A stretch of DNA of 64,000 nucleotides, from sequence record NZ_CP040393.1; one strand, given 5' to 3'. This document shows positions 1,586-58,325 of this stretch, in pieces. Source of the stretch: a plasmid. The first letter of the stretch is position 1, and every line of letters begins with the position of its first letter. The notes under the pieces were generated by a model. The model saw only the letters and a program-made list of their open reading frames with translations. It was not told the DNA's origin and did not search any database. A program made the position numbers and the translations under genes.

Positions 1586-1933
1586 TTGTGTCTGTTCTTT
1601 TCCTGTGTAAAACGATCCTCGCAGAGCCGGTATGTTTGTTCTCTATTGATTCTCGCGCAGATATTTGTATGGTCCGCTTTGGCACTTAGCTGCCATAAGA
1701 CGGTCAAACAACTCAGAGGACATTTCTGTCTCGCGATAAAGGTGCCTTTTCTGCTTTGCGTTGACAGGAGAAGAGGCTATGAAGCTGACACCGAACTCTT
1801 TCATCTGGTGCGTTCTGATAGTGTGTCTCACACTGCTGATATTCACCTGGCTGACGCGAAAATCGCTCTGCGAAATTCGCTACAGAGACGGAAGCAGGGA
1901 GGTGGCCGCTTTGATGGCTTACGAATCCGGTAA
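1586..1933 (+). CDS. mok: mok-like overlapping reading frame of the hok/sok-type (flm-like) locus. The true start is probably downstream of the first ATG.
   Basis: The long ORF overlaps hok in a different frame and ends 4 nt before the hok stop, as in R1 hok/mok and F flmC/flmA. An antisense Sok-like RNA would be expected on the minus strand around 1690-1770. Confidence 0.4.
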
Positions 1934-1937
1934 GTAG
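1779..1937 (+). CDS. hok: Hok/Gef-family membrane toxin (52 aa) of a post-segregational killing locus, flmA/hok-like
   Basis: Translation [52 protein letters not shown] is near-identical in pattern to Hok ([52 protein letters not shown]). Confidence 0.9.
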
Positions 1938-2074
1938 CAACCTGGAGGCGGGGGCAACCCCGCCTTTTCAGGGCTGATGCGTTCTGGCATGGCCGAAAGC
2001 GCCTTTACAAGGGGCTGTCAGTGTCCGCTGGCAGCCCCCTTTTTTTCCGGTGCGATCGCACGCATGAACACCCG

Positions 2075-2990
2075 GAAGGGCTGTTCCCCTCCGGGGAACG
2101 GGGGAAGGGCGGATGCGCCTGCGGCGCGCCCGCTTTACTCCCTTCGCTTTCCCGTCCGCTCCTCATACATCTCCGGCGTCTCCAGTTGCTCGATGGCCAG
2201 CAGAATTCCCGTGTGATGTTCTTCTGTCGCCACCATGATTTGCCAGTAAAGCCGTTTAAGCTGGTACACCAGCTGCGCACGGTCAGTTTCTGCGCCGTTG
2301 CCGGCCAGCATCAGGCAGCACTGGCCCACTATCCGGCAGGTTTCGTCGTAAAACGCTTCTTCTGCATCATCTTCGGTTTCATCTTCTGACATGAGAATGC
2401 TCCCGGTTGTGCGTTTTTTGCTCACAGGCAGCATACATCAGAACACCATAAACACCACAGCTCTGGCCCCCTCCGGCTCCCCGTCCGTTCCGGCCGGGTC
2501 GTCGAGCCACACTCCGCTAACCCGGCGGCAGGCCGCCGGCTAAGCTCCGCCGAACCCGCGAAAAGATGCGGTTTCGGGCTGTTCGCTAGTGTCTGAGGGC
2601 TGAAGGTCAACGGCCCGCCTGCTGCGACCTGCCGGTCGCGCCGCTGTCACCGCCCCGGCGCAGCCGGGGCTTTAAGGGCGACCCGGCGGTGTGACGCTGC
2701 CGGGTCGGGTGTGTGCATTCTGTCCGTCCGGTGATGTCCATCGCCCCGGTCGTCCCCTGCGGAGGGCTTTTCGTAGCACCGTTCGCCCGGAAAACACCAG
2801 GGTGAAGTGCACGCGCAGGCGCGCCCTGGTCTTTTCCGTTCGCCCGTCGCTACTCTGCCCTTCGCCGCAGAGGAACTCACCGGGGAGATGGATTAACCAT
2901 CACCACAAGGGGAAAAGCAGAATGCACACACACAACGTCAACGTCAAAACCGCCACAGAAGAATCTTCCAGGAAGATGGGGGTTAAAAAC
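2075..2990. repeat. Leading-region direct repeat copy A. GC-rich, full of short dyads. Candidate Frpo/ssi-type single-strand promoter element plus 5' UTR and the first 20 codons of the downstream ORF.
   Basis: 2447-2990 is about 95% identical to 5455-5985. A further block at 2080-2160 matches 5275-5350. Between them copy A carries a unique ~280 bp segment (2160-2440). Confidence 0.7.
2135..2392 (-). CDS. Hypothetical acidic protein (about 85 aa) inside the unique insert of repeat copy A
   Basis: ORF MSEDETEDDAEEAFYDETCRIVGQCC... No recognisable family. It is on the opposite strand to the rest of the leading-region genes, so it may be spurious. Confidence 0.25.
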   Translation of the reverse strand: MSEDETEDDAEEAFYDETCRIVGQCCLMLAGNGAETDRAQLVYQLKRLYWQIMVATEEHHTGILLAIEQLETPEMYEERTGKRRE

Positions 2991-3239
2991 CCGTCACCTT
3001 TACTCATCCTGCTCGCTGAAGGTGAGAAAAACTCACAGGCGGAATGGGACGTCATGGAGTTTGGCTCCCTGGCTGCGCTTAAAGACTATCGCCGGAGCTT
3101 CCCGGAAAAAATGAAGGGGCTTTATCACTACATCGTCAGTGCGGGTGTGGATAAAGACTTTCACCACGTGGAAGTGGTTGCGGCTGACCATTTTAAACAG
3201 TTCGTGCGCCAGATAGCGCGCATGGGGATCACCATTTAA
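2922..3239 (+). CDS. Leading-region protein (105 aa), unknown function. First gene downstream of repeat A; shares its N-terminal 20 aa with 5917..6231.
   Basis: ATG at 2922 with an AAGGGGA RBS. MHTHNVNVKTATEESSRKMG VKNPSPLLILLAEGEKNSQAEWDVMEFGSLAALKDY... The long upstream extension of the tracked ORF (2691) is an artefact of the stop-free GC-rich repeat. Confidence 0.6.
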   Translation: MHTHNVNVKTATEESSRKMGVKNPSPLLILLAEGEKNSQAEWDVMEFGSLAALKDYRRSFPEKMKGLYHYIVSAGVDKDFHHVEVVAADHFKQFVRQIARMGITI

Positions 3240-3313
3240 CACGGTGCCGCCCTTCCGGGCGGCTGATTTAACACCCCTGCGGCGGTTATCTGCCGCCACA
3301 GCCTAAAGGAAAA

Positions 3314-3805
3314 ATGACCATGACTACATACACCGCCACCGACGCAGAACAGGCGTTCATTGCCGACGATCCTCTGGTGTTTGTGAACACCACCACCGGC
3401 AAACAACTCAGCTATGCCATCGCCATTACTGGCATTGATGAGCCTGTTTCTTTCAGCAGTTTTGAAACGCTCAGCCAGTTGCAACAGCGCACCCCTGAAC
3501 TGGCACTGATGCCAGAATCAGCCGCACAGGCGCTGCGTCCCACACCGCACCACCTGCCGTGGACGGAAATCACGGCTCAACGGTTCAGCGAACTGGCCGC
3601 CAGCGCCTGCCCGTTGCAGATCGGGCAGGGAGTCGGCGGGTGTGAAGCGTTTATGACTCCGGCAGCGGTCGCCGGGAACGTGGCACATTATTGCGCGAAG
3701 TATGAGGGGCGTTTTTTCGAGTGCCGGGATGATGCCTCGCTGAACACCCGCATGATCCTGGCGGGTATCCGCAGCGGCTTCTTTAGCGGCAATAAGGCCG
3801 CTTAA
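3314..3805 (+). CDS. Leading-region protein of unknown function (163 aa); paralogue of 3879..4346
   Basis: Shares LPW(T/E)EIT(A/G)(Q/E)R(F/Y)S(E/D) and a C-terminal GRFFECRD motif with the next ORF. Same strand as hok and the Frpo-like repeats. Confidence 0.6.
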   Translation: MTMTTYTATDAEQAFIADDPLVFVNTTTGKQLSYAIAITGIDEPVSFSSFETLSQLQQRTPELALMPESAAQALRPTPHHLPWTEITAQRFSELAASACPLQIGQGVGGCEAFMTPAAVAGNVAHYCAKYEGRFFECRDDASLNTRMILAGIRSGFFSGNKAA

Positions 3806-3878
3806 GACAGTACAGGGCTGAAAAGCCCTGAAAACTTAACCCGGCGGCATCACGCCGCCTTATGCAGGAGAAATACCG

Positions 3879-4346
3879 ATGTCACCACTTGAAGAAGCAC
3901 TCCGTCCGACCGAAATGGCTTTTTTTCAGGTCTCCCGTTCACGTATATGGGATTACGCCGTGTTATCCGGCGGGGAATGGCGCTCAAAATTCGGCGGTAA
4001 AACGCTGGCGCAGATGCGCGAGGACATGCCCGATATGGAGCTTATCGCCACCGCCGAAGCGGTACAACGCCAGAACGAGGGGCACCGGCTGCCCTGGGAG
4101 GAAATCACCGGAGAGCGTTACAGCGATCAGCTGGAGATGTTGCCGCCAGTGCACTGGCGCACGTGGGGAAGTTGTGAATCCTTCAAGTCACCGGAACGCT
4201 ATTCCGCAGACGTAACCCGCATTTTTGCGCAGTTCCGGGGGCGCTTCTTTGAGTGCCGCGATCTCGTCACCCTGACGCCGCAGGAGATTTATGAAAGCAT
4301 CCTGAGCGCCTTTTTTGCCGGGGATTCGGTAAATTCCGGGCAGTAA
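3879..4346 (+). CDS. Leading-region protein of unknown function (155 aa); paralogue of 3314..3805
   Basis: MSPLEEALRPTEMAFFQVSRSRIWDYAVLSGGEWRSKFGGKTLAQMRED...LPWEEITGERYSDQ...FRGRFFECRDLVTL. GGAG RBS upstream. Confidence 0.6.
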   Translation: MSPLEEALRPTEMAFFQVSRSRIWDYAVLSGGEWRSKFGGKTLAQMREDMPDMELIATAEAVQRQNEGHRLPWEEITGERYSDQLEMLPPVHWRTWGSCESFKSPERYSADVTRIFAQFRGRFFECRDLVTLTPQEIYESILSAFFAGDSVNSGQ

Positions 4347-4428
4347 AAAAGCAGGGCAAAGCCCTGCTTAATCACGGATGGCACGGACCAGGTGCCGTCC
4401 TTATCAAAACAGATGGAGGATGAATTCC

Positions 4429-4629
4429 ATGATAGTTGACCCGCAGACTGTCGCACAGGCGACGGCGTTTGTAAATGCCATCCGGGCAGGAAAGCCCGCC
4501 CGTATTCCGGCAATGTCGTTCAGCCGCTGGCAGGAGTTTATGGCGGCGGTCGATGCCAGAACAGGCTACGCCCGTGAGGCTGATGCAGGGCTGGGGGGCA
4601 GTGTTTACCCGGCGCTGGGGCTGGCATAA
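4429..4629 (+). CDS. Small leading-region protein (66 aa), unknown function
   Basis: ATG at 4429 preceded by GGAGG at a 9-nt spacing. MIVDPQTVAQATAFVNAIRAGKPARIPAMSFSRWQEFMAAVDARTGYAREADAGLGGSVYPALGLA. Confidence 0.5.
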   Translation: MIVDPQTVAQATAFVNAIRAGKPARIPAMSFSRWQEFMAAVDARTGYAREADAGLGGSVYPALGLA

Positions 4630-4674
4630 CGGAGGCTGGCCGCCCTGGCGGGCGGCCTTTTAAATGAGGTCAGT

Positions 4675-4917
4675 ATGAATACAGAACCGATGCGTCATAG
4701 TCCCGATCCCCGCCGGTGGTGCCGCGAGGTAATAGTCTCCTTCCGTCAGCATCTTGCCGCCGGAGTGAATGAAGCAGAGTACAACGTGGCCTGTGATGAG
4801 CAGGCCTGCCATCACTATGACGAAACACCCTCCACCATCTTCCGCCTTCGCCTGGTCTGCGGCGGATTTGTGGCAGGCTTCATGCGGTCAGTGCGGCGCA
4901 GGGGTGGTCAGGCATGA
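4675..4917 (+). CDS. Small leading-region protein (80 aa), unknown
   Basis: ORF MNTEPMRHSPDPRRWCREVIVSFRQHLAAGVNEAEYNVACDEQACHHYDETPSTIFRLRLVCGG... Its stop overlaps the start of the next ORF (ATGA). Confidence 0.45.
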   Translation: MNTEPMRHSPDPRRWCREVIVSFRQHLAAGVNEAEYNVACDEQACHHYDETPSTIFRLRLVCGGFVAGFMRSVRRRGGQA

Positions 4918-5240
4918 AAGCACACAAAACACCGGACACGATCCCCGTAATGGCGTTGCAGGACATTGCCGCGCTGCTGCCTGTGCACGAATTCCCGGTC
5001 CGGCTCTCCAGCCGGTCGCAGTGCGCGGCACTGGCTGCGGAAGCGCTGTGGCTGTTTGCGCAGCGTACCGGGCTTTCGCAGGAGGGTGAAACGCTTGATA
5101 CGCTGCTGGTCGATTTTCTGGCAGATGTGCTGCACCTTTGCCGCCATGCCGGGATCACAGCAAACATGGCAGACGACATGGCGCAGCTGATGGCCATCGC
5201 AGAGATGCACCACGAATCGGATGACTATCCGGACGACTGA
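4914..5240 (+). CDS. Small acidic leading-region protein (108 aa), unknown
   Basis: ORF MKAHKTPDTIPVMALQDIAALLPVHEFPVRLSSRSQCAALAAEALWLFAQRTGLSQEGETLDTLLVDFLADVLHLCRHAGI...ESDDYPDD. Translationally coupled to the previous ORF. Confidence 0.5.
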   Translation: MKAHKTPDTIPVMALQDIAALLPVHEFPVRLSSRSQCAALAAEALWLFAQRTGLSQEGETLDTLLVDFLADVLHLCRHAGITANMADDMAQLMAIAEMHHESDDYPDD

Positions 5241-5269
5241 TGCCCGCGCCCTGAACGGCAAATGCCGGA

Positions 5270-5985
5270 AAGGGCGCTCCCCTCCGGGGAGCAGGGCAGG
5301 ACGGAGGCGCCTGCGGCGCGCCCGCTTTTCCCCCTCCGCCTTCGCTTACCCTGCCGCCTGGTATTGTGGCCATTCTTCATCCTGCCGATATGACTGCTGT
5401 TCAGGGGGGGCCGCTGGTTCTGGTTACCGGTGATATTCACTGACAACAGCCGGAACATGGCCCCCTTCGGCTCCCCGTCCGTTCCGTCCGGGTCGTCGAG
5501 CCACACTCCGCTAAGCGGCCGCGAAGCGCCCGCCAGGCTCCGCCGAACCCGCGAAAAGATGCGGTTCCGGGCCTGACGGCTAGCGTCTGATGGCTGAAGG
5601 TCAACGGCCCGCTTGCTGCGACCGTGCCGGTCGCGCCGCTGTCACCGCCCCGGCGCAGCCGGGGCTTTAAGGGCGACCCGGCGGTGTGACGTTGCCGGGT
5701 CGGGTGTGTGCATTCTGTCCGTCCGGCGATGTCCATCGCCCCGGACGTCCCCTGCGGAGGGCTTTTCGTAGCACCGTTCGCCCGGAAAACACCAGGGTGA
5801 AGTGCACGCGCAGGCGCGCCCTGGTCTTTTCCGTTCGCCCGTCGCTACTTTGCCCTTCGCCGCAGAGGAACTCACCGGGGAGATGGATTAACCATCACCA
5901 CAAGGGGAAAAGCAGAATGCACACACACAACGTCAACGTCAAAACCGCCACAGAAGAATCTTCCAGGAAGATGGGTGAAAAAGAC
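5270..5985. repeat. Leading-region direct repeat copy B (Frpo/ssi-like), including the first 20 codons of 5917..6231
   Basis: See copy A. The same dyad-rich GC-rich sequence, about 95% identical across roughly 540 bp. Confidence 0.7.
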
Positions 5986-6231
5986 ACGCCCCTGACTGAC
6001 GAGCAGATCATCGAAACTTTTAACTGGGTTTTCGCCGTAACGGCTGACATGCCTGAGGCACATTGCCAGGACTTCATACCACCCGCAGGCGCGGAAGAAA
6101 TCGACGTATTTTTCGACGATGTTCCGGATTACTACACCATCTGGATTTTAAATAAATGGCCGGTTGCTGCGGCCATGCCCCTCGATTCTGTATTTCGTTT
6201 TTTACCTGACTCATTATTTTTGAGGAGATGA
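5917..6231 (+). CDS. Leading-region protein (104 aa), unknown. N-terminal 20 aa are identical to 2922..3239, then diverges.
   Basis: MHTHNVNVKTATEESSRKMG EKDTPLTDEQIIETFNWVFAVTADMPEAHCQDFIPPAGAEEIDVFFDDVPDYYTIWILNKWPVAAAMPL... Its stop overlaps the start of the next gene. Confidence 0.6.
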   Translation: MHTHNVNVKTATEESSRKMGEKDTPLTDEQIIETFNWVFAVTADMPEAHCQDFIPPAGAEEIDVFFDDVPDYYTIWILNKWPVAAAMPLDSVFRFLPDSLFLRR

Positions 6232-7055
6232 CTATGATTCGTTTATCCACCCGTTATGCCGCACCGACTTTTATGCGTAATACCCGCCCGCTGACCAATG
6301 ATGAGCTTTTGCGCGTTGTTCCCAGCGCGTTTTCTGTTGAAAAACACGAGTCACGCTCAGAGCGTTACACTTATATTCCGACCATTACACTACTGGATAA
6401 ATTACGGAATGAGGGGTTCCAGCCCTTTTATGCGAGCCAGTCCCGCGTGCGTGACCCTGAACGCCGTGAATATACCAAACACATGATCCGCCTGCGTCGC
6501 GGTAATAACATGAGCGGGACAGAAGTTCCGGAAATTGTTTTGCTGAACAGCCACGATGGCAGCAGCAGCTATAAAATGATCCCCGGTATTTTCCGTCAGG
6601 TCTGTACTAATGGACTGGTGTGCTGGAAATCGTTTGGGGAAATAAATGTCCCGCACAAAGGGGATATTGTTTCGCAGGTTATCGAAGGCGCTTATGAAGT
6701 GCTTGGCGTGTTCGATAAAGTTACAGACAACATGGAACAGATGAAAAGTATCCAGCTGAACAGCCCGGAACGGCAGCTGCTCGGACAGATGGCACTGGAT
6801 TATAAATATGGTGAAGGAAAAGCGCCGGTGACGGCTGAGAAAATTATCCAACCGCGCGCATGGTATGACAGGGAAACAGATTTGTGGACATCATTTAATA
6901 TTGTACAGGAGAATCTGGTCAAAGGCGGGATCTCCGGGCGAACCGCAAAAGGAAAAAGAACCACCACGCGACCAGTGACCGGCATCGATGGCGACATCAA
7001 ACTTAATCAGGCACTCTGGAAAATGGCGGAAGAGTTTGCAAAACTTAAAAGCTGA
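6228..7055 (+). CDS. Conserved plasmid leading-region protein (about 273 aa), DUF932-like. Alternative start at 6234.
   Basis: 275-aa ORF MTMIRLSTRYAAPTFMRNTRPLTNDELLRVVPSAFSVEKHESRSERYTYIPTITLLDKLRNEGFQPFYASQSRVRDPERREYTKHMIRLRR... The size and position (just before orf169/oriT) match the ~273-aa leading-region ORF of F-like plasmids. The family assignment is from memory. Confidence 0.5.
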   Translation: MTMIRLSTRYAAPTFMRNTRPLTNDELLRVVPSAFSVEKHESRSERYTYIPTITLLDKLRNEGFQPFYASQSRVRDPERREYTKHMIRLRRGNNMSGTEVPEIVLLNSHDGSSSYKMIPGIFRQVCTNGLVCWKSFGEINVPHKGDIVSQVIEGAYEVLGVFDKVTDNMEQMKSIQLNSPERQLLGQMALDYKYGEGKAPVTAEKIIQPRAWYDRETDLWTSFNIVQENLVKGGISGRTAKGKRTTTRPVTGIDGDIKLNQALWKMAEEFAKLKS

Positions 7056-7087: not shown

Positions 7088-7654
7088 TTAATCCTGCACT
7101 GGCAAAGGGGAAGTGTCTCTTTTCGCCAGCTCATCTTTTTTCTGTAAAGCAGAACGCTGCTCAAGAATATCCCTCCTTGCCAGCAAAACACGGTAAATGT
7201 TCTTCACCGATTGTGCGTAGGAACGCCTCTGGGCGATCAGCTTTTTCGCCGGGCCTGTATTATACATTCCGACGCTGTCCCAGTTTTTCCCGTATGACCT
7301 GAAGTTATGTGCTAATACCCATGCGCCCGTATAAACACAAATACACGGATCATTGAGCAAATCTGATCGCGTAATATTAAATTCACGCAACTTCCCGTAA
7401 TGCGAGCTGTTGACCTGCATTCCGCAGACATCTTCAGATCCGTTTCTGTTGGCTTTATTTATCGCCCCTGGCTGTAAGCGGCTTTCCTTAATCGATATTG
7501 ACATGAGCAACAGGGGATCAATGCCATAATCATAGCCAGCTTTATCAAAACACATTTGAGGTGCTGCACTGCATGACATTGTCATGCTGAGCAGAAGATA
7601 CAGCAGTTTATTCATTTTCTGTGCCTTTGCAGTATACGCAACGGTAGTGACCAT
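7088..7654 (-). CDS. Lytic transglycosylase, SLT-domain (orf169 / gene X / P19 family). The likely true start is at the signal peptide MNKLLYLLL (about 7615).
   Basis: ...CFDKAGYDYGIDPLLLMSISIKESRLQPGAINKANRNGSEDVCGMQVNSSH...DPCICVYTGAWVL... matches F orf169 ([50 protein letters not shown]...TDPCMNIYTGAYYL). Confidence 0.85.
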   Translation of the reverse strand: MVTTVAYTAKAQKMNKLLYLLLSMTMSCSAAPQMCFDKAGYDYGIDPLLLMSISIKESRLQPGAINKANRNGSEDVCGMQVNSSHYGKLREFNITRSDLLNDPCICVYTGAWVLAHNFRSYGKNWDSVGMYNTGPAKKLIAQRRSYAQSVKNIYRVLLARRDILEQRSALQKKDELAKRDTSPLPVQD

Positions 7655-7699: not shown

Positions 7700-8190
7700 A
7701 ACACCTCTTACAAACGCGCAGAGGGCGCTTCTGTGATGCGTTTCAGCTCGATCCAGAATAACAATCAGATCCTCTTACCCTTTATTTTTTGCCGCTCTTT
7801 ACTGAACATATAAAACATGACACCCCACGCAAGACTTCGTCTTGCAGTTTTTGTTTGTGGAATCAGGTGGTTATTCTGTAAAAATTGTGCCGGTTCTGGA
7901 ATAAAATCAAAAACATCACACAATGCGACACTATATTGTGCGACATATGTGTTACCTGTTAGTGTTGGTTTGTCGCAGGTATATCGTACAGTTGTGGATA
8001 TTCTCTTAAATCAGTAAACTGCATATCACACAGTGTCACACTGTCGCACAAATATCGCACATAACTACTACTGTATAAGCCAGATTTAATACATCCAGCG
8101 TAAAAGCCCACTCCGACCGGGGCCGGGTTTTTGCCACAAAAAACAGCCGGGTAGTGTCGGTTCCGACACCAGTTAAAAACAGGATTTAAT
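7700..8190. promoter_or_regulatory. oriT region. Predicted nic on the minus (transferred) strand at about 7819/7820. The traM promoter and repeated TGCGACA / TGTCGCA motifs lie at 7920-8075.
   Basis: The reverse complement of 7815-7846 is GCAAGAC GAA GTCTTGC GTGGGGTGT|CATG. That is a 7-bp-stem hairpin followed by the F-family nic core (F: TTTGCGTGGGGTGT|GGTGCT). It sits between orf169 and traM as in F. Confidence 0.65.
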
Positions 8191-8586
8191 ATGGGAAGAG
8201 TGGGTATTTACCTGAAGGACAAAATAGAGCGTGAAGTACGTGATATTGTCCAGATGGATTTACAGAATGGTGCCAATCCTTCTGAAGCAAACATATCAGC
8301 AACCTGCAATGAACTTATCAGACTTGGACTTCTGGTCTACAAGAAAAATGACAGCGACGGCAATAACTTTAATCTGGAAGGTTTCCGGCGGGACCTGATT
8401 AAAAAAGTTGCCGGCTCACGCGAGGGAATGATGATTCTTACCGCACTGATTTCGGAAATATACGTTGAACTGAAAGGGGACAAGGCACCGCTGAGCCTTG
8501 AGGATATGATTAATAACAATATTTCCGCGATAAATACCGCTGAGAACATGGCGGAAACACAACACTTTCTGGTCGAAGAACAATAA
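8191..8586 (+). CDS. traM: TraM, oriT-binding relaxosome accessory protein
   Basis: MGRVGIYLKDKIEREVRDIVQMDLQNGANPSEANISATCNELIRLGLLV matches F TraM MAKVNLYISNDAYEKINAIIEKRRQEGAREKDVSFSATASMLLELGLRV. 131 aa; first gene after oriT. Confidence 0.8.
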   Translation: MGRVGIYLKDKIEREVRDIVQMDLQNGANPSEANISATCNELIRLGLLVYKKNDSDGNNFNLEGFRRDLIKKVAGSREGMMILTALISEIYVELKGDKAPLSLEDMINNNISAINTAENMAETQHFLVEEQ

Positions 8587-8625
8587 CCACAGTGGCCGGA
8601 AGCAACACCGGCCACACACTCTCAG

Positions 8626-9300
8626 TTACTCCGGTTTATTCCACGGAAGCGGGACTTCTTCCGCTTCAGCAATTTTCTCCCGCAGATACCACTCAAAAGC
8701 CATACAGAGCACCTTCAGTGCCTGCGCATCTTTATTCTGGTCAAGAATTCGCTCCGTAAAATAACCCAGAGAATTCATCAGCCTTGTCAGCATTTCATCG
8801 TTAAGACTCCGTTTGTGTACCCGCGCCATAATTCTGATTTCGCTCGCGAGATTTTCCGGGATTCGCATACTGTAACCTGACGTTTTACCCGGAATAAGCA
8901 CCCGCTCGCCCTCGCGCCACATCCACGCCATCTCAGAACGCCCGCCCGGATTTACCGGGAGGTGAGGTTTTTCCTTGCCCTCAGAAAATATATCCTCCAG
9001 CCATTCTTCAAATTTTACCGCCAGAGAAATAATTCTTTCCCCTTCCGCCGTCTTAATTACCGGCACATGTGGCTGATAATTCAGGGACATTAACAGGCGC
9101 GCAATAATTTCATCATTAACACTTCGCCCACCTGTTCTGGCGCAAACCCGCAATTCCATTAACAGGTTGTCCGGCGCACGCAGTCGCCATTCCACCGTCT
9201 CGCCCGCAGTGAACTTACGCGGCCGCCCTCGGTGGTCCCACATTTTCTCTTTTACTTTCATCTGGATAGATCCCTGACAACTCAGGCGTTGTACCTGCAT
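8626..9300 (-). CDS. Tandem ribbon-helix-helix (Arc/MetJ-type) DNA-binding protein, divergently transcribed between traM and traA. It sits where traJ/traY would be but on the opposite strand.
   Basis: Two internal repeats: GRPRKFTAGETVEWRLRAPDNLLMELRVCARTGGRSVNDEIIARLLMSL and GERVLIPGKTSGYSMRIPENLASEIRIMARVHKRSLNDEMLTRLMNSL. Both carry the (R/K)S(V/L)N(D/S)E(I/M) Arc-like helix. No plus-strand ORF of 60 aa or more exists between 8586 and 9435. Confidence 0.7.
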   Translation of the reverse strand: MQVQRLSCQGSIQMKVKEKMWDHRGRPRKFTAGETVEWRLRAPDNLLMELRVCARTGGRSVNDEIIARLLMSLNYQPHVPVIKTAEGERIISLAVKFEEWLEDIFSEGKEKPHLPVNPGGRSEMAWMWREGERVLIPGKTSGYSMRIPENLASEIRIMARVHKRSLNDEMLTRLMNSLGYFTERILDQNKDAQALKVLCMAFEWYLREKIAEAEEVPLPWNKPE

Positions 9301-12880: not shown

Positions 12881-13348
12881 GTGAAAAAAGACCGTAACGC
12901 TAAAGTTCTGCGGCAAATACGCAGTGATATTAACCAGTGGCGCGCGGGCGGCTTTCCGCCCGGTAAGCGGTTATTTCTGTTCGTCTGGGGGCTTCCCACT
13001 CTTGGCGGATTCTGGCTGGTGATGAATTCATCAGCGAAACCGGCAGTGTCAGCGCTTATATTCGCGCTTATCTCCGGCGTTGCCCTGATTTTTGCCACAG
13101 TGGTCACTGCGGCCGCCCCAAAAACATGGAGTGAAACCCTGGATAAAAGACTCTCCACATACCAGCCACAGAACCTGGTGGCCTGGAACTATTTACAGAA
13201 AACAGCCAGCAAAAAGGGAAAGCTTGAAGTGCATGACCTGGAGCGCTGGTATGAAAGCGAGGCCATTACCGCCTGCCCTCGGGTGAAAAAACCGCTTCGC
13301 TTTCTGAACCATCGACCGGAGACGAAAGATACGGAGTCACTGAAATGA
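12881..13348 (+). CDS. Inner-membrane protein at the traP position (TraP-like by synteny only), GTG start
   Basis: 155 aa, 2-3 TM helices (LFLFVWGLPTLGGFWLVM..., ALIFALISGVALIFATVVTAAA). No clear sequence match recalled. Confidence 0.4.
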   Translation: MKKDRNAKVLRQIRSDINQWRAGGFPPGKRLFLFVWGLPTLGGFWLVMNSSAKPAVSALIFALISGVALIFATVVTAAAPKTWSETLDKRLSTYQPQNLVAWNYLQKTASKKGKLEVHDLERWYESEAITACPRVKKPLRFLNHRPETKDTESLK

Positions 13349-13551
13349 ACCGTTATGCAACGAACACTCTTGTGCTTATCACGCTGGCTCTGCTCGCTTC
13401 ACTGATGCTAATGGTCAGCGCCGCAAAGGGCGAGGCTCTTCAGACCGGGCTGAACTTACTCAGACCGGTCTGTTTCAGTACTCCAGGCCGGACAGAGGCC
13501 AGATTTTTATCGAACCATTCACCGACCGGGCAAAATCATGCAAATAAATAA
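13345..13551 (+). CDS. Small hydrophobic protein (68 aa) at the trbD position
   Basis: MNRYATNTLVLITLALLASLMLMVSAAKGEA... Overlapping start/stop with its neighbours. Confidence 0.35.
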   Translation: MNRYATNTLVLITLALLASLMLMVSAAKGEALQTGLNLLRPVCFSTPGRTEARFLSNHSPTGQNHANK

Positions 13552-14428
13552 CTATGCAGAAATGACAATGAATATTAGTAAAAAGAGCCTCTTTGTATTA
13601 CTTACAGTTGCAGGACTCATTCTTGCCCTGATAGCTGCCTTTCTTTCAATTTATACCGTAAATGAAGGAGAACGAGGCATTGTGCTTCGGAATGGCAGGG
13701 TGGTGACGGTTGCCGGGCCGGGTATGGGTCTCAAAATACCTTTCATTGAAAGCGTGGAGAAAATTACAGTTCGCAACGAAGCGATGCTTTACAGGGGGCT
13801 GAGTGCATACAGCAGTGACCAGCAACCCGCCCAGATGACCGTTTCTGTTAACTTCCACATCCCGCCTTCTGACGTTGAACGGGTTTATGCGGGATACAAA
13901 ACGGTTGAAGATATGAAAACTCGCCTTATTGCCCGCCAGATACCCACACAGCTTGAAAATGTTTTTGGACAATATACGGCTATCAGTGCAGTACAGAACC
14001 GCACCCGTCTTGTTCTGGATGTCCAGAATGCGCTACGCAAGTCTGTTGATGGTCCGGTAGTTATCGATACCGTCCAGATCGAGAATATCGATTTTTCTGA
14101 TGCTTATGAAAAATCCATCGAAGACCGAATGAAAGCCGAGGTGGCTATTGCGACCCGCAGGCAGAATCTTGAAACGGAAAAGATTCAGGCGCAAATAACG
14201 GTAACCAAGGCACAGGCTACAGCTGACAGCAAACTGGCTGCTGCAAAGGCTGATTCTGAATCTATTCGACTGCGTGGTAGCGCAGAAGCCGAAGCGATCC
14301 GGGCGAAAGGGGAGGCGCTGAAAGATAATCCGTCTCTTGTCAGCCTGACCACCGCCGAACGCTGGGATGGAAAATTACCCGCCTCTATGGTTCCGGGAGG
14401 CAGCGTTCCCTTCATTTCTGTTAAGTAG
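13538..14428 (+). CDS. SPFH / band-7 (HflC/prohibitin-like) membrane protein embedded in the tra operon. Possible start at 13565 (MTMNISKK).
   Basis: N-terminal TM (LFVLLTVAGLILALIAAFLSIY) then TVNEGERGIVLRNGRVV...IPFIE...an AEA-repeat helix...TTAERWDGKLPASMVPGGSVPFISVK. This is the classic SPFH domain plus its C-terminal ERWDG motif. It is not present in the F tra operon. Confidence 0.8.
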   Translation: MQINNYAEMTMNISKKSLFVLLTVAGLILALIAAFLSIYTVNEGERGIVLRNGRVVTVAGPGMGLKIPFIESVEKITVRNEAMLYRGLSAYSSDQQPAQMTVSVNFHIPPSDVERVYAGYKTVEDMKTRLIARQIPTQLENVFGQYTAISAVQNRTRLVLDVQNALRKSVDGPVVIDTVQIENIDFSDAYEKSIEDRMKAEVAIATRRQNLETEKIQAQITVTKAQATADSKLAAAKADSESIRLRGSAEAEAIRAKGEALKDNPSLVSLTTAERWDGKLPASMVPGGSVPFISVK

Positions 14429-43792: not shown

Positions 43793-44379
43793 ACGCGCCC
43801 GGTCCCGCCGGGCTTGTCCAACCCGGATAACGCAGGTTAAATCCCTGCCTTTTCCGGGTTCCAGTGTTTAGTTCTGATGTCCCTGATGAAACTTGTGCTA
43901 CCGACCGGCGTCGTGCCGGTCGCTGACAGCAAATGTCAGCATATTCCGCACGTACTGACTTTCTGCAAATTTTCAGATCCTCCCGCCTTTTCCGCGATCC
44001 TTTCTACTGGAAAACTCAACGCCAATTGAGTAGACTCGTTTCGTCGTGGAAAGCCTGTGGTGAGGCCTTTTCGCAGATACATTTTTGAATTATGACTTAT
44101 CTCAAATCAGTACGCTGACTGATTCCGAAGTCTTGTGGTGAGACGGAAGATATCAGGAGATATGCCAGATTCACGCTTCACGCCTGTACATGCGAGCGGG
44201 CGGGAAAGTTATGGAATACAGGGATGGGGCGTATCCGTAAAACGTCCGGGAGAAGGTGACGGCAGATTTGCCGGAGCCGGAATGCAAAAACCCCCCGAAA
44301 TCTGTTAAGCAACTTGGCGGAAGCATCAGAAATCAGGGGGTCCAAAAGCAGGCGCAGCGCCTGTGAAGGATTATAACGC

Positions 44380-44433
44380 ATGCATTATATAAAACAACAC
44401 CCGGCCGCCATAAGAAAAGGCCGGCGTGAATGA
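44380..44433 (+). CDS. tap-like leader peptide (17 aa) translationally coupled to repA
   Basis: ATG CAT TAT ATA AAA ... CGT GAA TGA. Its stop (44431-33) lies just downstream of the repA GTG start (44426). The hairpin CCGGCC-N12-GGCCGG (44401-44424) covers the repA start region, as in IncFII repA control. Confidence 0.4.
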   Translation: MHYIKQHPAAIRKGRRE

Positions 44434-45334
44434 CAATATAAAATCGCGCGACGATCGTCGCCACCGTGGTACTCATTCCACGGCCTGCAAATGCCCTGCG
44501 CCGGAATACATTCGCCCGGCACATTACAAAGCGCTCAGCAAAGAGCACGGTCGCGCGCTGCGCAACCTGATTGTCCGGGATAAAACCACCGGCGAGTGGG
44601 TGATTCGCCGTCGCGTGTCTGCCGATCCTCTCTTCACTTTCCTCCGCCCATCTGCCGGCCGCAAACGGGCTTTTCGTTATCTGCGCCGGCAGCTGCTCGA
44701 TGCGCTGTTTATTCTCTTCATCAACAAGGTCGATCTGGCCACGGATATAGTGACCATCAACATCACCCGTCTGGCTGAGGAATTAAGCCCGAAAGATGCT
44801 GACGGTAACATCATCCCCGGACAGGCTGTCACGGTCACCCGCGTTTCTCGCCTGGTGACTGAACTGGCGCGCTTTGGCTTCATTTATGCGCCTGAGGCTG
44901 AATGGGATATGGTCAATAACTGCCGTTTTCCCAAACATGTCATCATCACCGAGGCCGGATGGCGGCTGACGGGAATTGATACGGATAAACTGCGGGCAGA
45001 ACAGGCTGAACGTCTGGCGGCCATCGAAGACGGGATCCTTGCGCCCGGAGAAACTCTCTCCCTGAAGGCAGCCCGCAGCCGCTGGTATGAACGCTGCCGG
45101 CACCAGACCATCCTGACGCGCAGAACCCGCGCCATTGAAGGCAGGCAGCGCAGAAAGCTGGCTGAACTGCCCTTCGATGAGCGCAAGCGCCAGATTTCCG
45201 AAGGACTGATGCGCAGCCTGAAAGGCGATGTGGGGCACATGACGTCCCGCCAGTTCGAGAAAATGGTCTGGGCACAGCTTTACCAGCTTGAACTGGTGAA
45301 CCTCGAGCCACCGGGAACACCTCCCCCTCACTAG
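44426..45334 (+). CDS. repA: IncFII(RepFIIA)-family replication initiator RepA1-like (GTG start)
   Basis: 302 aa. ...RKRAFRYLRRQLLDALFILFINKVDLATDIVTINITRLAEELSPKD...VTVTRVSRLVTELARFGFIYAPEAEWDMVNNCRFPKHVIITEAGWRLTGIDTDKLRAE... parallels R100 RepA1 (...RRRAIDALLQGLCFHYDPLANRVQCSITTLAIECGLATES...ITRATRALTFLSELGLITYQTEYDPLIGCYIPTDITFTSALFAALDVSEDAV). Arg/Lys-rich C-terminus. Confidence 0.65.
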   Translation: MNDNIKSRDDRRHRGTHSTACKCPAPEYIRPAHYKALSKEHGRALRNLIVRDKTTGEWVIRRRVSADPLFTFLRPSAGRKRAFRYLRRQLLDALFILFINKVDLATDIVTINITRLAEELSPKDADGNIIPGQAVTVTRVSRLVTELARFGFIYAPEAEWDMVNNCRFPKHVIITEAGWRLTGIDTDKLRAEQAERLAAIEDGILAPGETLSLKAARSRWYERCRHQTILTRRTRAIEGRQRRKLAELPFDERKRQISEGLMRSLKGDVGHMTSRQFEKMVWAQLYQLELVNLEPPGTPPPH

Positions 45335-57794: not shown

Positions 57795-58325
57795 CAAAGC
57801 CCGCTTTGTAGCGGGCTTCGCCAGAATTTCTTCTGGTATTCAGAACACCTTTACCGGGCTTGGCCTCGACCAACATTGCTGCTGGTAGTGGGATGTCTGG
57901 TATCACCAGTCTGCTGCATCCTTAAAACAATTGTAGGTAGTGTGATGTAGATTTGCAACCACAATGTGTGGTTGCACCTATATACTAACTTTTCTCGATC
58001 TCCCCACAATCCCTTTCTGTATCGGGATTTCTGGAAATAGCCGACTAAAGAAACCTATAACCTAACTGCTATTCTGCGGTTCATGATGTTAGACGGATTT
58101 CCCCACCATATCGAAACCGGGTATGCCGAAAAAACGGGAAAATTTCACGGTAAAGGCTCCGATTTAACATATAACACCTTAACCGCACCGGCCCTGTGTA
58201 TTGCTGCATGCTTCACAGCTTTTACCTGACAACCTACCTAAAGTAAAAAATGGCATTAGGTTAGTGACTGGCTCTCCATTATGAGGGAGTCATACTCTGG
58301 GATTACAACACAAGGAACACAATAT

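Follow-up and report, generated by a model that had tools for sequence, protein, structure and literature searches.

The stretch of 64,000 nucleotides analysed here (the window) raises the question why the leading region of a plasmid carries two GC-rich direct repeats, each of which continues into an ORF with the same first 20 codons. The preliminary description had read them as candidate single-strand promoters of the Frpo/ssi type. Since both homology and hairpin structure point in this direction, we consider it probable that the two repeats are paralogous leading-region elements of this type (class 1, 'ssp1'), which would act as promoters on single-stranded DNA as in F and ColIb-P9. Frpo hairpins are known to start transcription of the earliest plasmid genes before the complementary strand is made. 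A Frpo-type repeat next to oriT is what one expects in an F-like plasmid; what is unusual is that the element has no -35 region and brings its own start codon together with about 19 codons.

According to a repeat search, MAFFT and a global alignment, copy A extends from 2464 to 2982 and copy B from 5458 to 5977. The repeat pair is real, its similarity being far beyond chance: 497 of 522 aligned columns are shared (95.2% identity), in agreement with the approximately 95% given before, but the contiguous unit is about 0.52 kb long and not about 0.9 kb as first described. The gene-proximal 353 nt are 98.6% identical (five differences) and the distal 166 nt 88.2%. The GC-richness noted earlier (65.9% in the repeats, 54.1% in the whole window) and a second shared block further upstream were both recovered. 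The parts outside the main hairpin are:

2087-2160, no strand assigned: upstream shared block A, 74 bp, 76% identical to 5279-5352
5279-5352, no strand assigned: upstream shared block B, 74 bp, counterpart of 2087-2160
2464-2684, minus strand: distal module A, short GC hairpins in series on the transferred strand, 88% identical to B
5458-5679, minus strand: distal module B, counterpart of distal module A
2963-2977 (5958-5972 in copy B), no strand assigned: palindrome ATCTTCCAGGAAGAT at the 3' edge of the repeat

The 74-bp block of copy A comprises two short GC hairpins and is homologous, by visual comparison, to DNA downstream of hok in the F plasmid (L001, around 13280-13345). Its folds in the window do not differ significantly from shuffles (z between -0.8 and -1.7); the homologue in F folds better than shuffles (z = -6.2). 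Approximately 300 bp of non-repeated DNA separate the block from the main repeat in copy A, and a minus-strand DUF2767-like ORF (2135-2434) lies between the two. The distal module is present in more than 5000 plasmid records, and Frpo*4 and Frpo*5 carry it in their tails as well. For 31 of the 35 relatives, its fold is better in the transferred-strand sense than in the complementary sense. Since the module precedes the hairpin in the mRNA sense, it is outside any transcript that a hairpin promoter would produce. The palindrome marks the junction beyond which the downstream proteins diverge, and is kept in many relatives, though not in all.

The order of features in the window is hok, repeat A, a ygeA-like operon, repeat B, an ORF, DUF932, SLT, nic (at about 7820) and traM, which is the layout of the F leading region. 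The strand of transfer follows from one site:

7812-7830, minus strand: F-type nic GCGTGGGGTGT/CATGTTTT between SLT and traM, with three mismatches to the nic of F

Only 0.02 matches of this quality to the F nic sequence are expected by chance. Because this nic lies on the minus strand (7830-7812), the minus strand enters the recipient first and is therefore the template for both plus-strand genes, as had been proposed. Copy B is about 1.9 kb and copy A about 4.9 kb away from nic. A tblastn search with F proteins detected no homologues of ssb, psiB, psiA, the ParB-like protein, ardB or the methylase in the 64-kb window, so the stated absence of ssb and psiB holds for this range. A promoter scan gave no match to a double-strand promoter of the sigma-70 type within 1900-6300.

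Both copies form the long imperfect hairpin that had been anticipated for the transferred strand:

2685-2954, minus strand: hairpin A, 270 nt, -89.4 kcal/mol, apex loop 2816-2821
5680-5949, minus strand: hairpin B, 270 nt, -88.3 kcal/mol, apex loop 5811-5816

These folds are better than those of shuffled sequences (z = -7.2 for A and -6.2 for B). In an alignment of the hairpin from 30 relatives, 95.3% of the cells are paired and 14 pairs show compensatory changes, compared to 8.1±1.6 in shuffles (none of 500 reached this number) and 1-6 in slid controls. In each of 35 relatives, the fold of the transferred-strand sense exceeds that of the mRNA sense in stability, the gap averaging 14.5 kcal/mol under DNA parameters and 21.4 kcal/mol under RNA parameters. 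The hairpin pairs further contain 123 G·T cells versus 19 A·C cells, a count that leans to the transferred strand, as the structure was predicted from the transferred-strand alignment; the per-strand energy comparison is free of this lean. Most relatives were gathered by an exact 18-mer from the leader, and the invariance of this 18-mer is therefore partly given by construction.

The relationship to known elements was assessed with a profile of the repeat family that was built without F sequences. It matches Frpo2 (87.0 bits, E 3e-25) and Frpo1 (86.2 bits) of F over almost the entire length of these elements, and F ssiD (41 bits) and ColIb Frpo3 (18 bits) with lower scores, and it finds nothing at the other single-strand promoters of F or elsewhere in the F leading region. 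Within the window it recognizes only the two copies, apart from two weak matches of about 30 bits on the opposite strand, which fall within these copies. The similarity to Frpo/ssi elements that the first interpretation implied is thus seen with the profile but not by direct BLAST of the repeats against F ssiD and ColIb Frpo1-3 (E ≥ 0.17); against the F leading region, BLAST gives matches at the Frpo flanks only. Among published candidates, Frpo*5 (BLAST E 2e-26, profile 329 bits) and Frpo*7 (E 6e-20, 237 bits) are clearly matched (sequences from PMC11541004, supplement 4). In related plasmids the homologous element is found upstream of a ParB-psiB-psiA operon, a neighbourhood of the kind suggested at the outset.

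Homology to the F elements is supported by the profile together with short collinear blocks, including GCGGTTTTGACGTT and GCGCGACCGGNACGGTCGC. Frpo1 (ssiD) and Frpo2 of F (ssp1a/ssp1b; Masai & Arai 1997; Couturier et al. 2023, PMC9849209) resemble the window repeats in leading-region position and strand, in being two copies a few kb apart, and in their long imperfect hairpin with an identical 13-nt bulge motif. Frpo1 has the same hairpin architecture and occupies the place of copy B, with nic about 2 kb away and the ygeA/DUF932 genes downstream. In contrast, the F hairpins are longer (approximately 320 nt versus 270 nt), their distal module is of another type, and the F element stops before the RBS and ATG of the gene, whereas here the ATG and 19-20 codons are inside the repeat. 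The frame homologous to the leader has no start codon in F. The genes behind the repeats are arranged as follows:

2908-2981, plus strand: translation start A, RBS AAGGGG at 2908-2913, ATG at 2922, 20-codon leader MHTHNVNVKTATEESSRKMG at 2922-2981
5903-5976, plus strand: translation start B, RBS AAGGGG at 5903-5908, ATG at 5917, shared leader
2922-3239, plus strand: ORF A, homologue of YgeA (F orf95) with the leader, first gene of the repeat A operon
3314-3805, 3879-4346, 4378-4629 and 4914-5240: remaining ORFs of the repeat A operon
5917-6231, plus strand: ORF B, leader plus an unrelated 85-residue body

As originally reported, each copy ends in an RBS and an ORF with the common leader, beyond which the two proteins have no likeness. 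The first 20 codons are identical because the repeated unit runs through the translation start. RBS, ATG and codons 1-11 are paired within the hairpin base, and a gene behind a copy is therefore expressed as an in-frame fusion. At codon 2, a His/Asn change is matched by a change in the opposite arm (column 33:305, GC 18 / UA 9). The idea that the leader belongs to the functional unit gains from this position in the hairpin base and from its family-wide occurrence: in at least 12 enterobacterial genera, the leader (MxTxNVNVKTA…) continues in frame into proteins of no fewer than five unrelated families, the unit including the leader DNA segment is present in 1,329 plasmids, and in 40 of 42 cases the frame is kept through to the gene behind the leader. 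ORF A is 46% identical to F YgeA (tblastn, E 1e-25) and belongs to no Pfam or NCBIfam family. When the leader-bearing ORFs were clustered, ORF A fell into cluster 1 and the body of ORF B into a family of 14 members. The DUF932 gene (6228-7055, a ygeB homologue) begins before ORF B ends.

The part of the hairpin that would be decisive for promoter activity is its apex and the region directly below:

2800-2812, minus strand: conserved motif GTGCACTTCACCC with the unpaired bulge TGCACTTCA, on the 3' (non-template) arm below the apex stem
5795-5807, minus strand: the counterpart -10-like bulge motif of copy B, matching that of copy A

F Frpo1 and relatives carry the exact 13-mer GTGCAYTTCACCC on this same strand, and the bulge motif is conserved in A2 and A6. 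The bulge hexamers fit T[GAT][CT]A[TC]T, and we presume that TGCACTTCA serves as a pre-melted -10 element (TGCACT), a hexamer without the A at position 2. In F and ColIb, the apex is an A/T-rich palindrome (…GCAAAAAGTTTTGC…), which we take to be the UP and -35 region; our placement of -35 and -10 in F draws on inspection of the sequence. Here, the apex is a 4-5-bp GC stem (GCGC-loop-GCGC) that lacks an A/T-rich -35 region, and only the -10-like bulge is retained. No -35-like hexamer was found 16-18 nt from the bulge in the short-apex form. From the promoter boxes first envisaged, the -10-like one is thus present and a -35 or UP element is not.

It is possible, although in our view unlikely, that the repeats are attenuated or re-purposed relatives of Frpo, in which the loss of the -35/UP apex abolished or much weakened the promoter, so that the hairpin is mainly a priming site or a barrier and the genes are expressed by other means. 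Besides the short GC apex, the GC content of 66% is in the range of the F roadblock promoter ssp2 (68.6%; PMC13478746), a stem-loop promoter reported to act as a barrier to complementary-strand synthesis (bioRxiv 10.64898/2026.01.09.698686), and the distal module outside the hairpin transcript is also biased to the transferred strand. However, short-apex forms retain the -10-like bulge and occur unchanged in Kosakonia, Phytobacter and one metagenome-assembled genome, and further short-apex forms exist in Yersinia, Serratia, Cedecea and Enterobacter. Moreover, the scanned range offers no alternative double-strand promoter, and RBS, ATG and in-frame fusions are kept directly behind the element.

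The strand bias would look the same whether the fold belongs to single-stranded DNA or to an RNA of that sense, and a minus-strand gene for a structured antisense RNA could therefore produce it. We regard this as very improbable: the weak TTGACG-17-CATTCT arrangement that lies within the leader codons on the minus strand fails the promoter scan, Rfam gives no match, the element always keeps its orientation relative to the transferred strand and to a downstream ORF, and single-strand promoter activity has been demonstrated for the F homologues (PMC9849209). About as improbable is a structured 5' leader of the plus-strand mRNA, i.e. a cis-regulatory RNA served by a conventional promoter further upstream. 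The element does lie directly upstream of the ORFs with RBS and ATG in the hairpin base, and the fold of the plus strand, too, is superior to that of shuffled sequences (z = -5.3), but the mRNA-sense fold is the weaker one in every relative compared, the wobble pairs favour the other strand, and neither an upstream promoter match nor an Rfam family was found. We give least credence to a recent segmental duplication or selfish repeat without own function, with the shared codons as by-product of one illegitimate recombination, since the unit is widespread with compensatory changes and a conserved frame, even though the proximal 353 nt are nearly identical and two copies of one plasmid resemble each other no less than copies at matching positions in different plasmids (98.5% versus 97.3%).

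How the Frpo/ssi-type elements might work in this plasmid we infer from the F homologues. During conjugation, the minus strand would enter the recipient 5'-first from nic, and first copy B and then copy A would snap back into their hairpins. The unpaired bulge on the non-template arm just below the apex would mimic a pre-opened -10 element, at which the host RNA polymerase might be recruited even without a -35 or UP element and would copy the 5' arm rightwards in window coordinates. The mRNA would start near 2826-2835 and 5821-5830, respectively, a position reasoned from the bulge and not computed. It would include the RBS, the ATG and the leader of 19-20 codons and continue into the ygeA-like operon (A) or into ORF B and DUF932 (B). 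Synthesis of the complementary strand would remove the hairpin and switch the promoter off, and the transcript may also prime this synthesis.

The elements ssi1-3 ('Frpo1-3') of ColIb-P9 (Bates et al. 1999; Nasim et al. 2004), whose pESBL equivalents belong to class 1 (PMC12672017), are likewise dispersed repeats (approximately 330 bp) upstream of leading-region operons, and the corresponding site of their hairpin has a mispaired stretch resembling a -10 box (T[AG][CT]ATC…CCCCTGGAC). Unlike the window repeats, they have no embedded start codon; their arms are not recognisably similar, and Frpo3 alone is matched, weakly. Class 2 and 3 promoters, with ssp2 upstream of ardB/klcA and ssp3 upstream of an M.EcoGIX-type methylase (PMC12672017, bioRxiv 10.64898/2026.01.09.698686), are also long GC-rich hairpins on the transferred strand of leading regions, but neither profile nor BLAST against F detected any similarity to them.

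Among published candidates (Samuel et al. 2024, PMC11541004), Frpo*5 and Frpo*7 from Salmonella enterica have both arms of the hairpin as well as the distal module in common with the repeats of the window. Frpo*5-7 were listed there as untested candidates of low certainty; they differ by a long A/T-rich apex, and their published sequences end at the start codon, so that the leader fusion is outside their description. Frpo'5/6 from an insect metagenome (PMC11541004) have, as here, a short GC apex beside an GTGCCATTTACCC bulge. Some relatives (L013, L048a, L087 and L006) have an apex that by eye resembles that of the insect-metagenome candidate Frpo'4, on the same scaffold.

The two GC-rich direct repeats near nic, copy A and copy B, are the same in 497 of 522 aligned columns (95.2%), in agreement with the approximately 95% of the preliminary description. 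The contiguous unit measures only about 0.52 kb, so that the 0.9 kb assumed there is too large, and the second common block exists as a separate element of 74 bp (2087-2160 and 5279-5352, 76% identity). Approximately 300 bp of unrelated DNA, containing a minus-strand DUF2767-like ORF, lie between this block and the main repeat of copy A. The block does not fold better than shuffles at either place in the window. Conservation is uneven along the main unit, with 98.6% identity between the copies in the gene-side 353 nt versus 88.2% in the distal 166 nt, and the GC content of the repeats is 65.9% compared to 54.1% window-wide. Each repeat ends, as proposed, in a ribosome-binding site and an ATG (2922 and 5917), and the two ORFs have MHTHNVNVKTATEESSRKMG in common, after which they are fully unlike. 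In the window as well as in many of the relatives, the palindrome ATCTTCC(N)GGAAGAT (2963-2977 and 5958-5972) is the exact end of the conserved unit. Its centre varies by 1 nt in length among the relatives, and this is always offset downstream, which keeps the ORF open. In the window, it is overlapped by a second palindrome, GAAGAATCTTC, and alternative small hairpins would therefore be possible.

The gene layout of the window is that of the F leading region, with the following features.

Features of the leading region (window coordinates, strand where applicable)
1761-1937: hok, 93% identity to F Hok over 41 aligned residues
Between hok and copy A: 74-bp block, with a second one before copy B
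2464-2982: copy A, direct repeat
2685-2954, minus strand: hairpin A, 270 nt, imperfect, -89.4 kcal/mol
2922-3239, plus strand: ORF A, YgeA/orf95 homologue (46% identity, E 1e-25)
Between ORF A and the second 74-bp block: four or five small ORFs
5458-5977: copy B, direct repeat
5680-5949, minus strand: hairpin B, 270 nt, imperfect, -88.3 kcal/mol
5917-6231, plus strand: ORF B, directly behind copy B
6228-7055, plus strand: DUF932/YgeB homologue (67% identity)
7088-7654, minus strand: SLT
7830-7812, minus strand: F-type nic region GCGTGGGGTGT|CATGTTTT, within the 536-bp gap between SLT and traM
8191: traM

The nic-like site has three mismatches to the F sequence, all of them 3' of the predicted cut. 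Since this F-type sequence lies on the minus strand, the minus strand is the transferred one. Entry begins with its 5' end and proceeds to lower coordinates, and the plus-strand genes between 2922 and 7055, which read towards nic, have it as their template, exactly as had been claimed. The repeats thus show the position typical of class 1 single-stranded-DNA promoters (Frpo/ssi, 'ssp1'), i.e. in a leading region whose transferred strand is the template of the downstream genes, and copy B, approximately 1.9 kb from nic, occupies the place of Frpo1 in F. Equally typical of class 1 is the occurrence of several dispersed copies, each heading a leading-region operon. The window has two copies, and the Kosakonia and Enterobacter mori relatives have three each, one of which precedes ParB-psiB-psiA; the repeat is therefore indeed found upstream of psiB genes in related plasmids. 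The reported absence of ssb and psiB could be verified, as a search of the 64-kb window revealed no homologue of ssb, psiB, psiA, ParB-like proteins, ardB or methylase. In pKS2022 of Kosakonia sacchari, the closest relative, psiB and psiA lie directly upstream of hok. Where relatives have these two genes before hok, positions 1-1760 of the window hold unrelated DNA, including a minus-strand glyoxalase/VOC-like ORF (1112-1501), and the leading region seems to have been cut back or replaced there.

The long hairpin predicted for the transferred strand exists in both copies, which fold far better than shuffles (z -7.2 and -6.2). A single 270-nt structure, long, stable and imperfect as in class 1 elements, was obtained once the first codons were included in the fold. 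Relatives were gathered from seven plasmids and by a scan of species-representative genomes for an 18-mer of the leader, i.e. of the codons shared by ORF A and ORF B. Genuine matches come from Enterobacter, Kosakonia, Phytobacter, Rahnella, Mixta, Pantoea, Erwinia, Yersinia, Leclercia, Citrobacter, Lelliottia, Serratia, Hafnia, Cedecea and Klebsiella. Matches in Vibrio, Clostridia, archaea and other unrelated organisms are due to chance, and loci from Hafnia psychrotolerans (L015), Erwinia (L055) and Vibrio (L034) were left out, being unrelated on alignment. RNAalifold recovered the hairpin on 30 relatives, in which 95.3% of the cells are paired. There are 14 compensatory pairs, compared to 8.1±1.6 in shuffles (none of 500 as high) and one to six in slid controls.

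As references for homology, we used F ssiD, F ssiE and ColIb Frpo1-3 from the set of Samuel et al. 2024 (PMC11541004, supplement 4). Pairwise BLAST of the minus strand against these gave nothing significant (E ≥ 0.17), and a BLAST search of the complete F leading region yielded a 29-nt match in the flanks of Frpo1 and Frpo2 but nothing more. The Salmonella elements Frpo*5 (E 2e-26) and Frpo*7 (E 6e-20), low-certainty candidates in the same paper (PMC11541004), match in both arms but not in the apex. Since direct BLAST to the F and ColIb references was not significant, a family profile was required, and the nhmmer profile was built with no F sequence among its members. It finds F Frpo2 with 87.0 bits (E 3e-25, positions 8112-8623 of plasmid F, L001) and Frpo1 with 86.2 bits (13494-14011), both matches covering profile positions 7-495, so that the proposed similarity to F Frpo holds. 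F ssiD scores 41 bits and ColIb Frpo3 18 bits, and the F leading region beyond Frpo1 and Frpo2 contains no profile match. In the window, the profile detects the two copies and two weak opposite-strand matches (approximately 30 bits) within these same copies. F Frpo1 has the same type of fold as the window repeats, but is longer. Neither profile nor BLAST on the F leading region revealed similarity to elements of class 2 or 3 (ssp2, ssp3; upstream of ardB/klcA or a methylase in F). No covariance model of Rfam 15 reached the gathering threshold in 2000-6000, or E ≤ 5 within the repeats. Homology to F Frpo and ColIb ssi is supported by the profile, and the repeats belong with the class 1 elements, whose start sites have been mapped in pESBL (PMC12672017). 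Profile, hairpin and position together support the original Frpo/ssi reading as to family and architecture.

Just below the apex stem of the hairpin, the 3' arm carries an unpaired bulge, TGCACTTCA, inside a conserved 13-mer, GTGCAYTTCACCC, which is also present in the relatives and is identical, and likewise on the transferred strand, in F Frpo1. Across the relatives, the hexamers read T[GAT][CT]A[TC]T, a degenerate -10. We infer that this motif is the -10 element, and it would then lie in a bulged part of the stem, as in class 1. Of the promoter-like boxes expected on the transferred strand, only this putative -10 was found; no -35 could be recognised in the short apex. The upper stem of the window copies consists of four to five GC pairs and a loop (GCGC-loop-GCGC), and neither an A/T tract nor, at 16-18 nt from the bulge, a hexamer resembling TTGACA is present. 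In contrast, an A/T-rich palindrome (…GCAAAAAGTTTTGC…) stands above the bulge in F, in ColIb, in the Salmonella candidates and in the relative from Enterobacter mori. In our reading, this palindrome may supply an UP-like stretch and, close to the loop, a weak -35, whose placement in F is uncertain. Because the -35 and the A/T-rich UP-like element of a class 1 upper stem are missing, we count the repeat as a variant of Frpo and not as a typical member.

The same GCGC-loop-GCGC apex is shared by Kosakonia, Phytobacter and a single metagenome-assembled genome. Yersinia, Serratia, Cedecea and Enterobacter have short apices of other kinds, and in a small number of relatives the scaffold bears a long, GC-rich apex of a different type. 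The apex varies as a module, while the scaffold remains constant. The long GC-rich apex (…CCGCAGGCCGCAGCGCAAGCGAGCC…GCGAACGGG(C/T)GAGGA…) is present at L013, L048 (5551-6093), L087 and L006 (13537-13832 and 18733-19028), where arms, ribosome-binding site and leader are the same as in the other relatives. By eye, it resembles the candidate Frpo'4 from an insect metagenome (Samuel et al.), which suggests an exchange of apex modules between promoter types.

The choice of plasmid genes expressed during the first minutes after entry by conjugation depends on single-strand promoters, and many of these genes are anti-defence genes. To our knowledge, few such promoters have been tested so far, every one of them with a -35/-10 hairpin. 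This makes a variant that keeps the bulged -10 and misses the -35 a test of the minimal needs of such a promoter: if it is active, a bulged -10 without -35 or UP duplex would be enough. The main rival explanation, less probable but serious, starts from the same loss, which would leave a weak promoter and an element whose chief role is in priming or in blocking replication, the latter as in the description of ssp2 (bioRxiv 10.64898/2026.01.09.698686).

Regarding the strand on which the element acts, separate folds of the two senses were computed for every relative. In 35 of 35 relatives, the sense of the transferred strand was the more stable one, with a mean advantage of 14.5 kcal/mol (DNA parameters) or 21.4 kcal/mol (RNA parameters), and these folds contain more G·T pairs in that sense. 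The 45 long-range pairs comprise 1159 Watson-Crick, 123 G·T, 19 A·C and 49 other cells; the count of G·T versus A·C favours the strand used for structure prediction, a lean of which the energy comparison is free. The distal 200 nt are biased to the transferred strand as well (31 of 35 relatives). An excess of G·T over A·C together with the energy difference per strand can serve as a simple computational signature of DNA elements that act as a single strand. The bias fits a fold used by the transferred strand while single or, in a formal sense, by an RNA of the same polarity. The latter would require an antisense RNA gene on the minus strand, which is disfavoured, since there is no promoter for it and the orientation is tied to nic; a minus-strand TTGACG-17-CATTCT seen by eye fails the criteria of the sigma-70 scan. 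A structured mRNA leader of the plus strand is disfavoured by the bias itself, which points to the opposite sense in all 35 relatives.

The second peculiarity of the element is its embedded start codon. The base of the hairpin comprises the ribosome-binding site, the ATG and codons 1-11, and where codon 2 differs (His or Asn), the opposite arm changes with it (GC 18, UA 9). Of 42 loci, 40 have the leader M(H/N)T(H/R/Q)NVNVKTA… joined in frame to an ORF with 49 residues or more, and the downstream parts of the proteins fall into at least five unrelated multi-member families and five singletons (42 loci). Members from Klebsiella, Cedecea and Yersinia hibernica, which had been gathered independently of the 18-mer, have the same leader, and the leader ATGs are the annotated starts in RefSeq. 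A 146-bp segment of arm and leader is found at 1,789 places in 1,329 of 72,556 PLSDB plasmids, mostly of Klebsiella, Enterobacter, Citrobacter and Serratia, and a one-off duplication is disfavoured by this family-wide distribution of the unit. A literature search found no mention of an 'NVNVKTA' leader, and the leader-bearing proteins match no Pfam or NCBIfam family. That many small 'hypothetical proteins' of leading regions have a common N-terminus despite being unrelated is explained by the embedded start and leader, which also suggest a route by which gene cassettes could be shuffled there without losing expression.

In F, in contrast, the stretch homologous to the leader is non-coding, its frame (…QNVKTAAPETQKMMGAEN…) being open without a start codon before 'KMMG'. 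At Frpo1 (13940-14035 of F), a short ATGATG-initiated frame stops at a TGA that shares bases with the start codon of ygeA (ATGA), so that translation of the two could be coupled, whereas at Frpo2 (8550-8646) the frame leads into ssb in frame. Because nucleotides are conserved where the leader stretch is untranslated, the main constraint appears to be on the DNA, and the shared peptide would be a by-product of genes starting within the element. It is a tentative and rather less probable idea that the element is a portable expression cassette, whose leader (MxTxNVNVKTA…, 16-19 residues) is functional in its own right. Three non-exclusive functions might be considered for such a leader. It may be a recombination-safe joint, at which copies are exchanged or converted and genes captured with the frame never broken. 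It may act as a double lock, if the start is buried in read-through mRNA from the double-stranded plasmid and free in hairpin-initiated transcripts. Finally, it could be an N-terminal tag, either a translation enhancer or one common to many early-entry proteins.

Judging from the F homologues, the incoming minus strand would fold into the hairpin, and its bulge would serve as a pre-opened -10. The host polymerase would then copy the 5' arm rightwards from an estimated start near 2826-2835 or 5821-5830, giving an mRNA that lacks the upstream arm and leaves ribosome-binding site and ATG free, until complementary-strand synthesis would remove hairpin and promoter. A sigma-70 scan for double-strand promoters in 1900-6300 found no match (1.3 expected), which fits silence of the genes once the plasmid is double-stranded. 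The element is a routine feature of leading regions, and its moderate interest derives from the missing -35 and the embedded, widely fused leader.

In the case of the window, copies within a plasmid are 98.5% alike, compared to 97.3% for positional counterparts between plasmids. The three copies of E. mori are 90-95% alike, yet only approximately 67% like those of the window. These values point to exchange between copies within a plasmid, which should not break the downstream ORFs, since both copies end at the same in-frame junction, the palindrome at 2963-2977 and 5958-5972. A recombination event joining copy A to copy B would remove 2983-5977 and spare the toxin-antitoxin locus, because hok lies outside the two repeats, unlike in F, where it lies between them. 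This hok/sok-type locus (1600-2040), just upstream of copy A, has terminator-like hairpins at approximately 1940-1975 and 2011-2038 after the Hok ORF.

Pfam and NCBIfam searches of the ORFs identified only DUF932, SLT, TraM and a weak DUF2767 match. The last concerns the minus-strand ORF at 2135-2434 between the 74-bp block and copy A (99 residues, Pfam E 0.001), whose counterparts in the relatives from Kosakonia and Phytobacter bear the annotation DUF2767 protein. Since it is encoded on the transferred strand itself, it is not expressible before complementary-strand synthesis. The ORFs 3314-3805 and 3879-4346 (163 and 155 residues) are adjacent paralogues with a common 45-nt block (3547 and 4082) and similar C-terminal motifs, and neither matches a Pfam or NCBIfam family. 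They are candidate early-entry genes, possibly with an anti-defence role; the Kosakonia relative has just one of the pair. Elsewhere in the window, two Rfam families exceed the gathering threshold: sroH RNA (57796-57950, minus strand, 111 bits) and PK-repBA (44289-44412, plus strand, 94.8 bits), the pseudoknot controlling the IncFII/IncB-type repBA replicon, just upstream of the ORF 44426-45334.
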